Positions 1 to 33,682 of a DNA stretch of 64,000 bases are shown here, piece by piece; positions within the stretch are counted from its first letter, which is position 1; every line of letters begins with the position of its first letter. Source of the stretch: a virus (lineage: Duplodnaviria; Caudoviricetes); IMG/VR virus record IMGVR_UViG_3300042270_000651, positions 1 through 64,000 of that record; one strand, 5' to 3'. Below the pieces are notes generated by a model that saw nothing but the letters and a program-made list of their open reading frames with translations, made no database searches and had not been told where the DNA came from. The translations under genes and the position numbers were made by a program.

Positions 1-636
1 CTACTGGCTGACCCACAGAACGCGGGCGATCCACTCCACCTGCTCACGAGGCAGGGACCGATCTTCGTGAAGAGGGTTGAGGCTTTTCAACTCGACGCGC
101 TTTTCCGACAGCCGCAGCAGTTCCTTCACCATCACCTCGCCGTCGAGGGTGCGCACCACCACCCGGTCGCCACGCCGGATGGAGGCCTCGGGCGCGACCA
201 CCAGACGATCCCCGTCCCGATAGACCGGTTGCATGGAATCGCCCGACACCTCAAGGGCATATGCATGAGGGTCGGTGACATCCGGCGAGCGGATCTCATC
301 CCATCCCGCACCCACCGGCCAGCCGGCGTCATCGAAGAAACCGGCCAACCCCGCCTGCGCGAATCCGATCAGCGGAAGGGTGCGCGAAGGCGGCTGACCG
401 TGACCGATGCCTTCCACCATCGCGGTGAAGTCCGAGAACGACGTGTTGGTCGCCTGAAGGATCTTGGCGATGGATTCCGTCGACGGCCATCGCGGCTTGC
501 CTTCCCGCGTGGTGCGCTTAGACCGATTGAAGGTCGTGGAATCAAGCCCTGCCCGCCGGGCCAGTCCCGAGGCGGACAAGCCCTTGATTTCAGCGAGGCG
601 GTCGATCGCGCGCCAGATCTGCGAGTGCTTCAGCAT
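1..636 (-). CDS. HTH + S24 peptidase (CI/LexA-like) transcriptional repressor, host
   Basis: N-terminal HTH (SASGLARRAGLDSTTFNRSKR), AQAG cleavage-like site, catalytic GDSMQP and VKEL motifs. Confidence 0.9.
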   Translation of the reverse strand: MLKHSQIWRAIDRLAEIKGLSASGLARRAGLDSTTFNRSKRTTREGKPRWPSTESIAKILQATNTSFSDFTAMVEGIGHGQPPSRTLPLIGFAQAGLAGFFDDAGWPVGAGWDEIRSPDVTDPHAYALEVSGDSMQPVYRDGDRLVVAPEASIRRGDRVVVRTLDGEVMVKELLRLSEKRVELKSLNPLHEDRSLPREQVEWIARVLWVSQ

Positions 637-732: not shown

Positions 733-747
733 GTTCTTATTTCGTTC
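733..747 (+). promoter_or_regulatory. Alphaproteobacterial LexA (SOS) box GTTC-N7-GTTC
   Basis: gttcTTATTTCgttc between a TTGACG-17-TAACAC promoter (696-724) and the ATG at 765. Confidence 0.65.
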
Positions 748-764
748 TTTCCGGGAGTTCCGCC

Positions 765-1133
765 ATGGCTCACCCCCACATCCCCCCTGTTCGCGTGCTG
801 ATCGACCGCCCCGCCGAGCTTTTTTGCTCCGCCGAGGATGCGTGGTTCTGGTACTGGCAATGCCAAATCGCCCGCGACGAGGGCGCCCGTTTCGTCGCGG
901 GCGCCGGAGTCGTCGGCCGCCCTTGCGATCCCGACGACGTATGCTGCGCCGCCTTGTCGTTGCTCCGGCGCGGCGTTCTTCAGCGCGGCCACCTCTCCAC
1001 CCTGGCGAGCTACGGTCGGGCGATGACGCCCCCCGACCCCCGCTTGCCCGATCAGGCCAACGCCCACCGCCTGTGGGAAGAGGCTCTCGACCGCATGACC
1101 ACCGTGTTGCGCGCCAAAGGAATCGTGGAATGA
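765..1133 (+). CDS. Hypothetical protein, possible regulator of the head operon
   Basis: ORF MAHPHIPP...LRAKGIVE with GGGAG RBS, divergent from the S24 repressor. Confidence 0.7.
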   Translation: MAHPHIPPVRVLIDRPAELFCSAEDAWFWYWQCQIARDEGARFVAGAGVVGRPCDPDDVCCAALSLLRRGVLQRGHLSTLASYGRAMTPPDPRLPDQANAHRLWEEALDRMTTVLRAKGIVE

Positions 1134-1525
1134 CCATCCCGGCCGTGGTCGTGTTCAGCGGCGACACCGACATTCCGTGGTTGCGCGTGTTGCGGCCCGG
1201 CTTTCGCCACTGCTTCGCCCTCATCGCGTCGGGCGACTGCTGGGTTCTGATCGACCCCTTGTCTCACTACACCGCCTTGCGGGTGGTTCAACAACCAGCG
1301 CCCTGGCAACCGGCTCCCTGGTTTCACGCGCACGGGCTCACCGCCATCGCCACGCACGCCGCCGAACCTCCCCGCCGCCTGGCCCCTTGGCGCCCCTATA
1401 CCTGTGTCGAGGCCGTGAAGCGGGCGCTTGGCCTGCGCCTCCCCTACGTTTTCACGCCCTGGCAACTGTACCGGACCCTCTCGGCCAATGGGATCGAAAC
1501 CCCACATAAAAGAAAATATTCTTGA
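1130..1525 (+). CDS. Hypothetical protein with His...TCVE motif (permuted papain-like, tentative)
   Basis: ATGA overlap with previous gene; GFRHCFA and YTCVEAVKR motifs. Confidence 0.65.
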   Translation: MTIPAVVVFSGDTDIPWLRVLRPGFRHCFALIASGDCWVLIDPLSHYTALRVVQQPAPWQPAPWFHAHGLTAIATHAAEPPRRLAPWRPYTCVEAVKRALGLRLPYVFTPWQLYRTLSANGIETPHKRKYS

Positions 1526-1550
1526 CATAGGGATTGAGATGCGTCATACC
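1522..1550 (+). promoter_or_regulatory. Sigma70-like promoter of the head operon
   Basis: TTGACA-17-CATACC preceded by an AT-rich UP-like tract. Confidence 0.6.
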
Positions 1551-1574
1551 TCCCCTTGTCAACGCCACACCTGC

Positions 1575-1604
1575 GCCCGCCGGACACCCTCCGGCGGGCT
1601 TTTT
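1575..1604 (+). terminator. Intrinsic terminator in the leader of the head operon
   Basis: GCCCGCCGGA-caccc-TCCGGCGGGC followed by TTTTT. Confidence 0.75.
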
Positions 1605-1656
1605 CGTGGCCGCAGTTCATGTCCCACCGCCCGCCCCACCAAAGGAGACCCGGCCC

Positions 1657-2292
1657 ATGGGAGGTTACTCATCCCTGCCGCCCCTCAACACTCTCGACGA
1701 TTTCGAGCAGTTGATGAACAGCGGTGGCCTGCCCGCCGGCGCCCCCAGCCAAGCTTTGCGTGACCGTTTACCCACGCCGCCACCGCCTCAACCGACGGTG
1801 TGGGTGGACAACGGCGCCGGCGAACCCGTGCCGCCGTCCTGGATGAAAAACCCCGGCCCGGACTGGTATCGCGTCGTCTTCGCCGACGGTACGGAAATGA
1901 GCGCCGCCGAATACCGCGCCTGGCGGGCCAAAAACGGCGTCTACGCACCGCCCACGGCCATCACCCCCGATGGGCGGGCCGTTTCCGACACCAAGGGCGC
2001 GCCCCCCACTCCAACGGCACCTCCGCCCTCATCGGGAACGCCGCCGTCCGCGCCTTCTCCACCGCCCTCGACGCCCACTCCGCCCCCCTCGCCCACTCCG
2101 AAGCCTCCAACATCGCCACCGCCCGCTCCAACGGCGCCTCCGCCCACACCGGAAGAGGAACGCCGCAAATCCCTGCAAACCCGAACCAGCGCCGAGGCCG
2201 CGCGCAAAAGCACCATCGCGACATCGTGGCGCGGGGTGCTCAGCCCGCCGCCGATCGTGGTCGGCCGCCGCAAGACCTTGTTGGGAGAATGA
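1657..2292 (+). CDS. Pro-rich protein preceding portal (podovirus pre-portal type)
   Basis: AAGGAG RBS; C-terminal TIATSWRGVL...RKTLLGE resembles small pre-portal proteins. Confidence 0.6.
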   Translation: MGGYSSLPPLNTLDDFEQLMNSGGLPAGAPSQALRDRLPTPPPPQPTVWVDNGAGEPVPPSWMKNPGPDWYRVVFADGTEMSAAEYRAWRAKNGVYAPPTAITPDGRAVSDTKGAPPTPTAPPPSSGTPPSAPSPPPSTPTPPPSPTPKPPTSPPPAPTAPPPTPEEERRKSLQTRTSAEAARKSTIATSWRGVLSPPPIVVGRRKTLLGE

Positions 2293-2295
2293 TCC

Positions 2296-3912
2296 ATGCC
2301 CGTCGATACCGAGGCCCTGTTGCGCCGCTACCGGGCCGCCCGGTCGCGCCGCAGCGCCTGGGAAGGACATTGGCGCGAATGCTATGACTTCACCCTGCCC
2401 AGCCGCGACGGCGCGGTGCCGGGGGGTGGAGCCGAGGGCGCGAAACGGGGCGACCGCCTGTTCGACGGCACCGCGCCGGACGCCGTGGACCAGTTGGCCG
2501 CCAGCCTGCTCGCGCAATTGACGCCGCCGTGGGCGCGCTGGTTCGGCCTGAGCGCCGGGGTGGAGATCGCCGCCACCGACCGCGACGCCATCGCGCCGGT
2601 CCTGGAAAAAACCGCCGAGATCGCGCGCGGCCACTTCGACCGCGCCAATTTCGCCGTCGAGATGCATCAAGCCTATCTGGATCTGGTGATCGCGGGCACC
2701 GCCAGCCTGTTGTTCGAGGAAGCGCCCCCTGGCAGCCCCAGCGCCTTCCGCTTCACCGCCGTTCCCCTGTCGGAACTGGTGGTGGAGGAAGGCGCATCGG
2801 GCCGCCTGGACACCACCTTCCGCCGATCGGACGCCAGCCTGCCCACCTTGCACGAACGCTTTCCCCGCGCCGACCTGCCCGACGCCCTGACCGCCCGCGC
2901 CGACGCGGACGCCGACGCCCGGTTCGCGGTGCTGGAAGCGGTCGTGCCCGAGCCGGACGGGGCCGGATTCGTCTACACCGCCTTGCTGGACCCGGAAGGC
3001 TCTCCCGGTACGTCGGACCCACTGGTGCTGGCCGAGGGCCGCTTCGCCCGCTCGCCCTTCATCACCTTCCGATGGCTGAAGGCCCCCGGCGAAGCCTATG
3101 GCCGCAGCCCGGTCATGAAGGCGCTGCCCGACATCAAGACCGCCAACAAGGTGGTGGAACTGGTGTTGAAGAACGCCAGCATCTCCGTCACCGGCATCTG
3201 GCAGGCCGATGACGACGGCGTGCTGAACCCCGCCAACATCCGGCTGGTGCCGGGGGCGATCATTCCCAAGGCGGTCGGGTCCTCGGGCCTGACGCCGCTG
3301 GAAGCGCCGGGGCGGTTCGATGTCAGCCAACTGGTGCTGGACGACCTGCGGGCGCGCATCCGTCACGCCCTGCTGGTGGACCGCCTGGGCCAGCCCGACG
3401 CCCCCACCATGACGGCGACCGAGGTGCTGGAACGGTCCGCCGAGATGGCGCGCATTCTGGGCGCCACCTACGGACGCTTGCAGTCAGAGCTTTTGACGCC
3501 GCTCATCCTGCGGGCCTTGTCCATCCTGCGCCGCCGGGGCGAAATCCCGGACTTGCGGGTGGACGGCCGCGTGGTGGACCTGACCTATCAGTCGCCGCTG
3601 GCCCGCACGCAGGCGCAATCCGACGCCCAGAACACCCTGACCTGGCTGACCTCCGTCGCCGGCCTTGGCCCCGAGGCGGCCCAGGCCGTGGACACGGTGG
3701 CGGCGGCCCGCTGGTTGGGCCGCGCCCTTGGCGTGCCCGCGGAACTCATCCGCGAGACGCCGCCCGAGGGCGCGGTTCCGTCCGCTCCTCCCGGCCCCGT
3801 GCCGGTGGGCGTGACACCCGCCGCGGCCCCGCCACCGACCGCCGGGGCCGCTCCGCCCCCGCTCGCCCCTGCCGCCGCCGCGATGCCCGGCGGCGCGGGA
3901 GGCGCGGCATGA
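2296..3912 (+). CDS. Portal / head-to-tail connector protein (T7/BPP-1-like)
   Basis: LFDGTA, GEAYGRSP, MTATEVLER and YQSPLA motifs. Confidence 0.9.
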   Translation: MPVDTEALLRRYRAARSRRSAWEGHWRECYDFTLPSRDGAVPGGGAEGAKRGDRLFDGTAPDAVDQLAASLLAQLTPPWARWFGLSAGVEIAATDRDAIAPVLEKTAEIARGHFDRANFAVEMHQAYLDLVIAGTASLLFEEAPPGSPSAFRFTAVPLSELVVEEGASGRLDTTFRRSDASLPTLHERFPRADLPDALTARADADADARFAVLEAVVPEPDGAGFVYTALLDPEGSPGTSDPLVLAEGRFARSPFITFRWLKAPGEAYGRSPVMKALPDIKTANKVVELVLKNASISVTGIWQADDDGVLNPANIRLVPGAIIPKAVGSSGLTPLEAPGRFDVSQLVLDDLRARIRHALLVDRLGQPDAPTMTATEVLERSAEMARILGATYGRLQSELLTPLILRALSILRRRGEIPDLRVDGRVVDLTYQSPLARTQAQSDAQNTLTWLTSVAGLGPEAAQAVDTVAAARWLGRALGVPAELIRETPPEGAVPSAPPGPVPVGVTPAAAPPPTAGAAPPPLAPAAAAMPGGAGGAA

Positions 3913-4196
3913 TCCCCGCCGCGCCCGAGCGCGAGGGGTGGAGCGGCCTCGAACCGGGGGCCGGGGGTGCGATCGAGGACGGTTCCGACGCGCCGGAGAA
4001 CGAGACGGGTTTCCTCTTCGCCCGTGTGTTTTCCGGCAGTGACGGCGACCGGGCGCTGCGCCACCTGCGCGCGCTGACCCTCGACCGCGCCCTCGGCCCC
4101 GAGGCCAGCCCGGAGGCCCTGCGCCACCTGGAAGGCCAACGCGCCCTTGTCCGCCACATCCTCGCCCTGGTGGTGCGGGGGCGGGCGGGCGGATAG
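3909..4196 (+). CDS. Bbp19-like small phage protein
   Basis: FARVF..DG..ALRHL...EGQRALV pattern; directly after portal. Confidence 0.7.
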   Translation: MIPAAPEREGWSGLEPGAGGAIEDGSDAPENETGFLFARVFSGSDGDRALRHLRALTLDRALGPEASPEALRHLEGQRALVRHILALVVRGRAGG

Positions 4197-4253: not shown

Positions 4254-4970
4254 ATGACCACTCCCGCCCTGCCCCGGCCCGCCGGGGTCAAACCCGCGAT
4301 CCCGGCGGAGTTCATCAACCCCGAAACCGGCGAGGCCGATGTCGAGGCCCTGCTCGCCGCCTTCATGGCCCTGCAACAACACACCGAAGGCGCTGTCCGT
4401 GTGCCCGGTCCCGAGGCCGACGACCAAACCCGACGCGCCTTTTTCTCGGCGCTAGGCGTCCCCGACAGCCCCGACGGCTACCAGGTCGCCGCGCCGCACG
4501 CGCTGCTTCAGGCCGACCCCGCCGTCAACAGCCGCCTCCACGCCGCCGGGTTCACGCCCGAACAGGTGCAGGTCGTTTACGATCTGGCCGCCGAACATGT
4601 CATTCCCGTGCTGGAAACCATGGCCGCCGACATGGACGGCGACCGCGAACTCGCCCTCCTGATCGATCACTTCGGCGGCGAGGAACGCTGGGCCGAGATC
4701 AGCCGTCAGCTTCAGGCCTGGGGCAAGGCCAACCTGCCCGCCGATGTGCTGTCCGCCCTGGCGGGCACGGCGGACGGCGTGCTGGCCCTGTTCCGCATGA
4801 TGCAATCCGGCGAGCCGGGCCTGGGTGGCCTGGACAAAAGCACAGGCGGCCCCACCGACGAAGACGCCGTCAAGGCGCTGATGCGCGACCCGAAATACTG
4901 GCGCGAGCGCGACCCCGCCACGGTGCGCAAGGTCGCGGAGGGCTTCAAGCGCCTCTATCCAGGGGCCTAG
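4254..4970 (+). CDS. Capsid assembly scaffold protein
   Basis: Between portal and capsid; LGVPDSPDGY motif and C-terminal DPKYW motif. Confidence 0.7.
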   Translation: MTTPALPRPAGVKPAIPAEFINPETGEADVEALLAAFMALQQHTEGAVRVPGPEADDQTRRAFFSALGVPDSPDGYQVAAPHALLQADPAVNSRLHAAGFTPEQVQVVYDLAAEHVIPVLETMAADMDGDRELALLIDHFGGEERWAEISRQLQAWGKANLPADVLSALAGTADGVLALFRMMQSGEPGLGGLDKSTGGPTDEDAVKALMRDPKYWRERDPATVRKVAEGFKRLYPGA

Positions 4971-5064
4971 GGCAAATCCCGAGCGGGCGCGATAGCCGGG
5001 CTGCCGCCCGGACCCGCTTGGGGACGATCTCCCCAAACCCCTCTTTGTTTTGTTCAGTAAGAGT

Positions 5065-5135
5065 GTGCCTTCAGCGGCGCGCAGCGCATCAACTCCCAAC
5101 GGTGGAATTGGTGTGCGCTGCGCGCGGCTGAGCAC
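5065..5135. repeat. Long imperfect inverted repeat (REP/MITE-like hairpin)
   Basis: gcgcgcagcgcatcaactcc...ggaattggtgtgcgctgcgcgc in the scaffold-capsid spacer. Confidence 0.55.
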
Positions 5136-5260
5136 CTCCTAGCCCAAGGAACCGCGGGTCTGGGTGGCCGCGCCACCCAGCGGGGGCTTGGAGGCGGAGC
5201 CTCCAAATATATCCCCCCGTCGCCTCTCTTCACCCATCACAACCCAAGGACCACGCAACC

Positions 5261-5965
5261 ATGTCCGTTCAGATCGACAAGTCCTTCGTGAAGCATTTCC
5301 AGGCCGACGTTCACCTCGCCTTTCAGCAGATGGGGTCCAAGCTGCGCAACACCGTGCGCACCAAGAACGACGTCAAAGGTTCTTCCACCGTGTTCCAGAA
5401 GGTCGGCAAGGGTACGGCCTCGACCAAGGCGCGGCACGGCAAGGTGCCGGTCATGAACCTCGACCACACGCCGGTCGAGTGCCAGCTCTACGACTACTAC
5501 GCCGGCGACTGGGTGGACCGGCTGGACGAGTTGAAAACCAACATCGACGAACGCCAGGTGCTGGTGAAGGCCGGGGCCTACGCCCTGGGCCGCAAGACCG
5601 ACGAGCTGATCATCAACGAGTTCGACGCCTCCACCAACTACGCCCAGGACGGCACCACCGGATTGACCAAGGAAAAGGTGCTGGCCGCCTTCGAAATGCT
5701 GGGCGAGGCCGACGTGCCCGACGACGGCGACCGCCATGCCGTGGTGGGCTGGAAACAGTGGTCCGAGCTGCTCGCCATCCCCGAGTTCTCCAACGCCGAT
5801 TACGTGGGCGAGGATGACCTGCCGTGGAAAGGCACCCAGGCCAAGAAGTGGCTGGGTACTTTGTGGATGCCCCATTCCGGCCTGACCGCTTCGGGCGGGG
5901 TGCGGTTTTGCTACTGGTATGACCGCAAGAAGTATCTTGACACATTCTATCGCGTCAGAAGCTAG
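5261..5965 (+). pseudogene. Podovirus-type major capsid protein, 3'-truncated by prophage insertion
   Basis: Capsid-like sequence (YAGDWVDRLDELK, GAYALGRKTD) up to CYWY at about 5920, then 14 AT-rich codons ending against the integrase stop; only 234 aa. Confidence 0.75.
5905..5925. other. Probable prophage attachment junction
   Basis: Composition shift after tgctactggtat, about 40 bp beyond the integrase 3' end; partner att site not in window. Confidence 0.55.
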
Positions 5966-7062
5966 GGTTTGTGCCCCTTACCGGGCGACCCGACGAGTTT
6001 ACTGTATTCGTACTGTGTCTCGCTGTGTGCTGCGCTGTTCTGCGCTTCCTGCGCCCTGGCCTCATCAATGCGCCGCATCTGGTGGTGCATCGTCTCGGTG
6101 ACGACGTGGGCGTAGCGCATGGTCGTCTGCAGGTTGGCATGCCCCAGAATGCGCTGCAGCACCGCGATCTCGCCGCCGTCGCGCAGCCAGCGGGTGGCGA
6201 AGGTGTGGCGCAGGTCGTGCCACCGGCAGGACACGCCGGACAGCTCCAGGGCGGGATACCAGAACCAGTGCGTGGCGACGTAGCGGCCGGTGCGGCCAGA
6301 CCGGAACAGGTGGGCGTCCCCGTCCTTGAGCATGTACCGCTCGGCGATGGCCAGCGCGCGGGCCGACAGCGGAACGACTCGGGCCTCGGCGTCCTTGGTG
6401 TCCGTCTCGAACAGGTGCACCTCGCGCCGCTTCAGGTCGACCCACCGGCAGCGCAGGTTCAGCTGCTCGCTCTTGCGCAGGCCCGTCTCGATGGCGAACG
6501 CCACCATGTCCCGGTGCTGGGGGTCACCCAGCGCCTTGAGGATGCGGGCCTCCTCGTCGTGGGTCAGGAACCGCGTAATCTCTCGGGCCCCCTGCAGCCG
6601 CTTCCACACCCGCGCGGCCTTCACCGGGTTGTTTTCGGCGGTGTCGCACCCCAGCCAAGTGAACAGGCCCGACAGGTACGTGCACTCGGCCAGCACCGTG
6701 CCGTCGGTCACCCCCGTGGCGCGGCGCTTCTCGATGAAGTCCTCGACCTCGTCGACCGTGATCTCCGACAGGTACAGCTCGCCGATGATCGGGTGCCAGT
6801 TCCGCAGCGCGCGGGTGAATGAGCGGCGCGTGTTGCGCTTGGTCTGAGCCAGTACGTACTCGGCGGCCACGTCCTTATAAAGACGAGCGCCCCGGAAAGC
6901 CCGGCGGCGCTCTGTCGCTTTCAAACAACGGTCGAGAACCTGATGAGCCTCGGCCTCTATTTCTGTCCCAGAAGATTTTCGTACAAGCCGTCCGTCGGCG
7001 TCCCGGTATCTGATCCACCAGGCTTTTGTCCCTTCCCGTCGGTAGACGCTTCCTTTTGCCAT
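5962..7062 (-). CDS. int: Tyrosine integrase
   Basis: TGLRKSE, HDLRHTFAT and LGHANLQTTMRY catalytic motifs. Confidence 0.95.
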   Translation of the reverse strand: MAKGSVYRREGTKAWWIRYRDADGRLVRKSSGTEIEAEAHQVLDRCLKATERRRAFRGARLYKDVAAEYVLAQTKRNTRRSFTRALRNWHPIIGELYLSEITVDEVEDFIEKRRATGVTDGTVLAECTYLSGLFTWLGCDTAENNPVKAARVWKRLQGAREITRFLTHDEEARILKALGDPQHRDMVAFAIETGLRKSEQLNLRCRWVDLKRREVHLFETDTKDAEARVVPLSARALAIAERYMLKDGDAHLFRSGRTGRYVATHWFWYPALELSGVSCRWHDLRHTFATRWLRDGGEIAVLQRILGHANLQTTMRYAHVVTETMHHQMRRIDEARAQEAQNSAAHSETQYEYSKLVGSPGKGHKP

Positions 7063-7253
7063 TTGCCTTCCTTAACCAGTTTGATCTGGTTCGTCGGATA
7101 CCGCCAACGCTTGCCGATACGCACGGCCGGGAGGTCTCCTTCCTGCGCCAGAATCTGAGCCATTCGGCTACTGATACGAAAAAGGTCCGCCACCTCCTTG
7201 GAGGTCAAGAACTCCTCCTCGTCGAGCAGGTTTTTGTTGTCTTTCTCCCGCAA
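6957..7253 (-). CDS. Excisionase-like HTH protein
   Basis: LTSKEVADLFRIS...LPAVRIGKRWRY motif; overlaps the int start. Confidence 0.8.
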   Translation of the reverse strand: MREKDNKNLLDEEEFLTSKEVADLFRISSRMAQILAQEGDLPAVRIGKRWRYPTNQIKLVKEGKWQKEASTDGKGQKPGGSDTGTPTDGLYENLLGQK

Positions 7254-7288
7254 CCTTCCCCCTCCTGCTGGTACGCCCTGGCCCCAAT

Positions 7289-7303
7289 GTTCTCGTTTTG
7301 TAC
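7289..7303. promoter_or_regulatory. Putative LexA box variant GTTC-N7-GTAC upstream of xis-int
   Basis: gttcTCGTTTTgtac between a minus-strand TTGACT (7345-7350) and the xis start. Confidence 0.45.
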
Positions 7304-7370
7304 TTGATCCGTACCCAATGGGCTTACTTGTAGCACCCCTATTGAGTCAAGGGCGTATGCGCGACCCTGA

Positions 7371-33608: not shown

Positions 33609-33682
33609 TGGAGCGGGCGGGCGGAGTCGAACCGCCGTCTCCAGGTTGGGAACCTGGCGCTCTACCGCTGAGCTACACCCGC
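33609..33682 (-). tRNA. tRNA-Gly(CCC)
   Basis: Cloverleaf GCGGGTGTAGCTCAGCGGTAGAGC...CCAGG-TTCCCAA-CCTGG...GTTCGAC...CGCCCGC-T-CCA. Confidence 0.93.

Follow-up and report, generated by a model that had tools for sequence, protein, structure and literature searches.

How does a major capsid gene come to end against the integrase of a different phage, and is this a break that the cell could undo? The question is raised by bases 1-64000 (hereafter the window) of the 94,208-b IMG/VR 'provirus' record IMGVR_UViG_3300042270_000651. At its left end lie the head genes of a podovirus-type particle locus, and the capsid open reading frame (ORF) of this locus runs into a convergent tyrosine integrase gene. 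A reading of the sequence alone had proposed that a prophage sits in a host-resident capsid gene and that excision driven by the SOS response would restore that gene. We consider it highly probable that an 88,564-bp siphovirus has integrated in the major capsid gene of a host-inherited particle locus of a Caenispirillum-like bacterium, using its own integrase and the 11-bp core TGCTACTGGTA. On the best reading, the phage entered a conserved and dispensable gene by ordinary site-specific lysogeny; the particle locus was inactivated as a side effect, and excision is probably linked to the SOS response.

Two ends of an insertion in a capsid gene

We identified 5,336 homologues of the capsid protein, and the best 120 are nearly all exactly 272 aa long, against 234 aa in the window (Table 1); thus, the homologous capsids do not naturally end at this point. 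The closest, from Caenispirillum salinarum AK4, is 98% identical, in an alignment limited to residues 1-222. At the DNA level the match to the AK4 locus runs from the S24 repressor gene to capsid nucleotide 659, which corresponds to window base 5919, and there is none further in the record. The break is directly 3' of TGCTACTGGTA, which makes up codons 217-220 (CYWY), as the sequence-only reading had noticed in placing the loss of capsid-like sequence right after CYWY, at about 5920. It had also seen that the capsid ORF ends against the integrase, and the stop codons of these two convergent genes do overlap. The last 14 residues of the chimeric capsid are encoded by inserted DNA, and the insertion costs the capsid its last 52 residues.

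The other end of the prophage lies outside the IMG/VR record, which was excised at gene boundaries from a 103,959-b Joint Genome Institute (JGI) metagenome contig. We recovered this parent contig via the last gene of the record; it adds 1,974 b past the record end, and the combined sequence examined (record plus the contig extension, L006) amounts to 96,182 b. No remainder of the capsid was detected by Pfam or tblastn within the 94-kb record, because its right boundary (94208) falls 265 b before the true attR. Beyond that boundary we found what the earlier reading had said to look for, an exact 11-bp direct repeat and the missing 3' codons of the capsid gene. The two core copies sit exactly where capsid homology stops or resumes. 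Capsid codons 221-250 (HKTAVGHAIGSEVATDVSWHGDRASHFVNN) follow in frame after the attR core, and codons 217-250 on the right-hand side share 88% identity with AK4 DNA and match an intact allele completely (100%). Counting one core copy, the insert is 88,564 bp long.

The intact allele encodes a 272-aa capsid (P0138) in the same 90% cluster as the AK4 capsid, and is identical to the window capsid at residues 1-220 and to the right-hand remainder at residues 221-250. A contig from another run (L095) has the empty site, matching with 0 mismatches 763 nt of the left side up to 5919 and 102 nt of the right side from the core, so the unoccupied attB is the left flank joined to the right flank. An uninterrupted allele with identical flanks therefore exists in the same species in other samples. 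The attL stretch (window 5300-6600), or part of it, was present in runs from wastewater, bioreactor, estuary and algae metagenomes. We mapped contigs of four runs on the window, and did not count uncovered parts in X12, X14 and X18 as absence. Run X1, possibly the source sample of the window, has a contig that spans attL and shows 0 differences. In X12 a contig matches up to exactly 5919 and then departs, and the phage sequence in that run consists of one 151-nt contig at depth 2; contigs of X14 break at 5919. A search for the attL-type pattern gave 0 matches in the viral contig collection, from which records of the window's own genome may be missing. The precise junctions together with the empty allele indicate that the insertion is real, precise and polymorphic in the population, and the empty allele implies that the reading frame would be rebuilt by precise excision. 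The split gene, the 11-bp repeats and the empty-site allele all support the proposal that the phage uses the capsid gene as attB and breaks it during lysogeny.

The integrase gene lies 43 nt from the core and is the sole integrase gene in the record; the excisionase-like gene (xis) is upstream of it and overlaps its start. The insert also encodes thymidylate synthase, helicases, primase, DnaB, DNA polymerase, a portal, a tape measure protein, and minor tail and tail proteins. With portal, major capsid, tape measure, tail and replication genes spread over 88.6 kb, it is not a satellite. Its major capsid protein also shares 56-60% identity with its counterparts in Rhizobium and Stenotrophomonas siphoviruses of ~100 kb. 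Judged by its genes, the insert is a complete temperate, lytic-capable siphovirus with a major capsid of the RcZahn / RHph_TM16 / DLP5 group type. No S24-type repressor was found in the phage.

Table 1. Positions of the locus, phage and attachment-site features discussed in the text (window coordinates unless stated).
Feature	Position	Strand	Details
HTH/Peptidase_S24 (LexA/CI-like) repressor	1-636	-	211 aa; PF00717 3.5e-26; weak HTH_26 match
SOS (LexA)-type box GTTC-N7-GTTC	733-747	+	GTTCTTATTTCGTTC; divergent promoter region, 18 nt before ATG at 765
Three small conserved genes	765-2292	+	122, 131 and 211 aa; gene tables of identical contigs
T7-type portal	2296-3912	+	PF12236 2.2e-142
Bbp19-like protein	3909-4196	+	PF25181 1.5e-16
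T7-type scaffold	4254-4970	+	PF05396 6.6e-16
Chimeric capsid ORF	5261-5965	+	234 aa; PF19821 (Phage_capsid_2) E 7.8e-69, profile positions 1-244/293
Native 5' part of major capsid gene	5261-5919	+	codons 1-220; profile and identity to intact allele
attL core	5909-5919	.	TGCTACTGGTA; 11 bp; one of only two copies in 96,182 b
Prophage body	5920-64000, continuing to attR core	- (almost all genes)	88.6-kb siphovirus-type
Tyrosine integrase	5962-7062	-	366 aa; PF00589 8.5e-26; phrog_1 1.2e-61
Putative excisionase, HTH_17 (AlpA/Xis-type)	6957-7253	-	PF12728 5.3e-11; phrog_66 'excisionase and transcriptional regulator'
SOS-type box variant GTTC-N7-GTAC	7289-7303	+	GTTCTCGTTTTGTAC; 36-50 nt upstream of xis start
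Phage major capsid protein	62443-63429		68% identical to Rhodobacter phage RcZahn
attR core	94473 of record plus extension; L006 ~1702-1712	.	TGCTACTGGTA; 88,564 bp downstream of attL core, 265 b past record end

A host-inherited locus and its recurrent interruption

In C. salinarum AK4 the cluster has the order S24 repressor, small genes, portal, Bbp19, scaffold, capsid, tail genes and T7-type terminase; it lies amid ordinary host genes and has no integrase or replication genes. This gene order recurs in 80 species-representative loci of Rhodospirillales, in the genera Caenispirillum, Roseospira, Terasakiella, Magnetovibrio, Magnetospirillum, Azospirillum, Skermanella, Haematospirillum and others. 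The S24 gene is found at the same place in AK4 and in about 40 related loci, facing the plus-strand operon, and in many loci it is adjoined by a host gene for a class-IV aminotransferase (AT4). Homologues of the locus genes g122 and g171 are syntenic in related loci, and the three small genes of the window have no Pfam matches. An integrase-like match was found in just one of the loci. A capsid with 69-100% identity turned up in 191 of the 301 genomes sampled from the order, in most cases once per genome, and its nearest relatives from cultured phages are those of pelagiphage podoviruses (30-49% identity). That the capsid gene is host-resident, as first suggested, is thus borne out by a locus of structural genes only, by its aminotransferase neighbour and by synteny across genera. 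On this evidence from gene content and gene order, the target is a podovirus-derived, structural-genes-only cluster inherited with the chromosome in Rhodospirillales. A lysogen thus has a disabled particle locus, its capsid short of 52 residues and its head genes cut off from those for the tail and the terminase. Our literature search found no description of a podovirus-type gene transfer agent (GTA) in Rhodospirillales; reports of GTAs in Azospirillum concern RcGTA-like clusters.

The scaffold-capsid and g80-g189 distances range from ~0.3 to 7 kb among genera (L015, L026, L048 and others), and the locus therefore carries variable inserted cargo. The scaffold-capsid interval of the window contains a repeat (4974-5234) with a summed contig depth ~1000x that of its flanks in four metagenomes and with many alternative joints; the complete genome of C. 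salinarum showed no copy of this repeat. In Caenispirillum bisanense (L010:7236-8746) the locus portal matches residues 266-487 only, with an integrase-like stretch just upstream, and this may be a further insertion into the locus.

Within the capsid gene itself, insertion points are found after codon 205, at codons 217-220 and after codon 250, the last of these in both this species and Roseospira marina. The contig of the window has two of them, as a second element, with a 424-aa P4-type integrase, begins after capsid codon 250; the parent contig ends 118 b after the integrase cassette of this element without a return to capsid sequence. Its right flank has 0 matches in the metagenome contig collection, which may likewise lack the window's own genome, and an exact look-up of the 424-aa integrase found no record. 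In R. marina DSM 15113 a 53.4-kb prophage occupies the junction of codons 250|251, with a 15-bp direct repeat (CACTTCGTGAACAAC) on either side; besides a convergent gene for a 341-aa integrase it has DUF5131, AAA_24 and PDDEXK genes, and is followed by the end of the capsid gene, the tail genes and the terminase. Another genome (G275) has a capsid that stops after FINN, at the same site, and the next gene is a host gene for methylmalonyl-CoA mutase. The species of the window also occurs in estuary samples, with an identical S24 protein; there its capsid is 205 aa long and precedes another element, which has a 360-aa integrase. This codon-205 insertion is known from the gene tables of a 169-kb ENA contig and of a Logan contig, and is consistent with a contig of run X18 that leaves the window at ~5874.

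The 366-, 424- and 341-aa integrases share 22-26% mutual identity (the 360-aa integrase is outside this comparison). Relatives of the 366-aa integrase are few, with only 12 at E <=1e-30 and none in the viral contig collection. The closest, at 72% identity, is on a 1336-b Logan contig (L093), where it abuts the same core and the 3' part of a capsid gene. The relative with 45% identity has no capsid gene adjacent to it.

We ranked the nucleotides of the capsid gene by conservation among 66 aligned capsid genes. The 11-mer at the 250|251 junction is the best conserved in the whole gene (rank 1/806). The top conserved 15-mer (CTGGTACCACAAGAC) overlaps the 217-220 core, while the core itself ranks 42/806, and the exact 11-bp core is present in 32 of 80 species. 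Thus, two of the three sites (217-220 and 250|251) are on or overlap the most conserved nucleotides of the gene. With at least four unrelated elements found in it, the stretch of capsid codons 205-250 is a recurrent landing pad. Integrases may repeatedly have evolved towards this gene which, like a tRNA gene, would offer a dispensable, widespread and nearly invariant target. These two nearly invariant stretches, reused by unrelated integrases, provide a clean natural example of attB choice.

In the contig extension (L006:1-1650), perfect 138-bp inverted repeats flank the gene for the 424-aa integrase; in each repeat the outermost 9 nt (GTCAACAAC) are capsid target sequence. Possible explanations of this structure are an invertible cassette, a rearranged att site and an assembly effect.

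SOS-type boxes and the question of a switch

Both boxes on which the idea of an SOS-reversible switch was built are present, one before the gene at 765 and the other before xis-int (Table 1). As plain patterns they occur at chance frequency: GTTC-N7-GTTC is found 2 times against 2.6 expected, and GTTC-N7-GTAC once against 0.8. Nevertheless, 21 of 40 related loci have the exact GTTC-N7-GTTC box at the same offset before their first gene, and the spacer varies among them. We constructed a score matrix from 15 boxes, all from other genomes, and scanned the 96 kb on both strands. The box at 7289 ranked first (18.7 bits) and that at 733 second (18.3), whereas the third-ranking site reached only 11.6. 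In 907 kb of related high-GC DNA there are ~12 untrained sites of at least 18 bits, many of them beside the locus itself; at this background rate the chance of such a site in the 118-nt xis leader is ~0.002. Conservation across genomes and the matrix scores thus indicate that both boxes are non-random despite their chance-level counts. The attribution to an alphaproteobacterial LexA box form also holds, as the published SOS operator of Caulobacter is GTTCN7GTTC (PMC9578287), and in C. salinarum an exact copy of the box (GTTCTAGTTTGGTTC) is found beside a TTGACG (-35) hexamer upstream of lexA. The GTAC variant recurs at the promoter of a homologous locus (L082). LexA control of xis-int is a reasonable inference from these boxes.

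Loci that lack the box often have TAGGAT/AGGAAT-type, partly palindromic motifs near a TTGAC hexamer in the S24/g122 intergenic regions; these motifs are a possible operator for the S24 repressor encoded in the locus.

Ordinary lysogeny with collateral inactivation of the locus would then proceed as follows. The host LexA would repress the locus promoter and the xis-int genes of the phage alike, so that DNA damage would trigger excision of the phage; and the re-arming of the particle locus would be a by-product of excision rather than a selected switch. Several observations weigh against this account. The xis box has one mismatch (GTAC), and a scan detected no sigma-70-like promoter beside the xis box or near the locus promoter. 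LexA and the S24 repressor of the locus are both candidate binders of the boxes, and the target locus is a putative maker of particles. The integrase on L093 is co-directional with the capsid gene, in the opposite orientation to that in the window. Finally, exact matches to the attP junction numbered 0 in the viral and metagenome contig collections, both of which may lack the window's own genome, so that we infer competence for excision only from the intact int and xis genes and the exact repeats.

Selection could instead have favoured the knock-out as such. Phages would gain by disabling a resident competitor, an SOS-induced locus that causes lysis and, if left intact, would kill the lysogen or draw on the same resources once induction sets in. 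Such a gain would account for the convergence of three to four unrelated elements on one 150-bp stretch and, as locus and phage both have SOS-type boxes, their simultaneous induction is possible. However, nucleotide conservation explains the convergence equally well for two of the three sites, loss of the capsid would not stop the lysis genes of the locus, and the benefit to the phage is a conjecture from sequence. We therefore regard selection for the knock-out as unlikely.

The stronger claim, made in the sequence-only reading, is of an adaptive reversible switch, in which the prophage keeps the locus off until SOS-induced excision restores the capsid and particles are made. Analogues of such a switch would be active lysogeny and the cis-coupling known from helper-embedded satellites; there is a precedent in helper-embedded phage-inducible chromosomal islands (HE-PICI), where late genes are delayed until the embedded element excises (PMC10111431). 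The part of this claim that stands is that precise excision would rebuild the frame, the empty allele being the left side of attL joined to the right side of attR. SOS-type boxes before both the locus and xis-int, and a phage without a cleavable CI-type repressor, are also what a switch would lead one to expect. The part that does not stand is the restored gene. The second element follows codon 250, and excision of this phage alone would therefore leave the capsid broken in this contig; the excised form was found in neither contig collection. The insert is a full, lytic-capable phage and not a satellite, and as a cell in which a whole 88.6-kb siphovirus is induced can be expected to die, a restored gene need not benefit it. 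Interrupted capsids are also rare among species genomes, which suggests occasional insertion and not fixed regulation. An adaptive switch is on this evidence quite improbable.

We give equally little credence to a broader version, in which the capsid gene would be a dedicated pad for several unrelated temperate elements and LexA-timed excision would re-arm an SOS-controlled, podovirus-derived locus of the whole order only during DNA damage. If true, a phage and a GTA-like element would stand in a nested hierarchy ordered by the SOS response. That the contig is a chimera fusing a host locus to an unrelated phage, as its metagenomic source and the very high-copy repeat just upstream of the capsid gene might suggest, is very unlikely, as both junctions have the exact 11-bp duplication and complementary halves of one gene, the chimeric 234-aa product is found on 7 contigs and two partial ones, the separately built Logan contig of run X1 (possibly the source sample) bridges attL, and the isolate genome of R. 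marina has the same kind of insertion.

Related systems and further features of the phage

Integration into phage late genes is known for satellites in helper prophages, and the closest described phenomenon is that of the HE-PICI (PMC10111431). In both cases a mobile element lies within a late or structural phage gene, islands are nested, the same class of gene is reused as attB, and the interrupted gene could be expressed only after the inner element excises; here that gene is the major capsid gene. The differences lie in the insert, the target and the integrases. Where a HE-PICI is a satellite, our 88.6-kb insert brings the full set of head, tail and replication genes of a siphovirus and runs antisense to the gene that it interrupts. 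It has entered a chromosomally fixed locus that lacks integration and replication genes, where a HE-PICI enters an inducible helper prophage, and the integrases that use this target come from several unrelated lineages (22-26% identity) as opposed to one clade. In the literature searched we found no description of a full-size temperate phage inside a host-fixed GTA-like locus.

Active lysogeny, as of phi10403S in comK of Listeria (PMC7397523) and phiSa3int in hlb of Staphylococcus (PMC6597384), likewise involves a prophage that splits a host protein-coding gene and whose precise excision would restore the frame. In our case the second insertion keeps the gene broken, so that excision would restore it only in strains without the second element, and neither lysis-free excision nor a benefit from the gene is indicated. 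The target locus shares with GTAs of the RcGTA type, including the Caulobacter GTA (PMC9632790), a content of structural genes only, a phage origin, order-wide chromosomal inheritance and a putative regulation by host stress. It differs in being of the T7/pelagiphage podovirus type (PF12236, PF19821) and not an HK97-type siphovirus, and in that its particle production and DNA packaging are putative. If the locus does make particles, phages would decide which cells can make them, linking lysogeny to gene transfer or altruistic lysis. R. marina DSM 15113, a cultured strain with the same configuration, offers a direct handle on both the switch idea and the function of the locus.

The phage in the window resembles RcZahn, the Rhizobium phages RHph_TM16 and Y1_11 and the Stenotrophomonas phage DLP5 (~96-102 kb siphoviruses) in its major capsid (56-68% identity) and in genome size. 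It differs from them in being integrated, with int/xis at one end and its attB in the capsid gene of another element. LexA-controlled induction modules are found in coliphage 186 (tum) and CTXphi, in which a host SOS operator precedes the induction gene and there is no self-cleaving CI; here the candidate box, with its one mismatch, precedes xis-int itself.

The IMG/VR 'provirus' is a composite, of which the first 5.9 kb is the host-inherited, domesticated particle locus and the remainder a prophage trimmed at its end by 265 b.

The inserted phage is further marked by a 14-bp motif (TGCAATTGATTTCA), which has 49 copies in the record (8603-94136), near-palindromic variants included, up to its very end. 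In the window there are 33 matches (8603-62234) against 0.06 expected. Most copies are just 5' of the ribosome-binding sites of minus-strand genes, a pattern like that of start-associated sequences in some mycobacteriophages, or of a promoter or operator specific to the phage. The prophage also contains a tRNA-Gly(CCC) gene (33609-33682).

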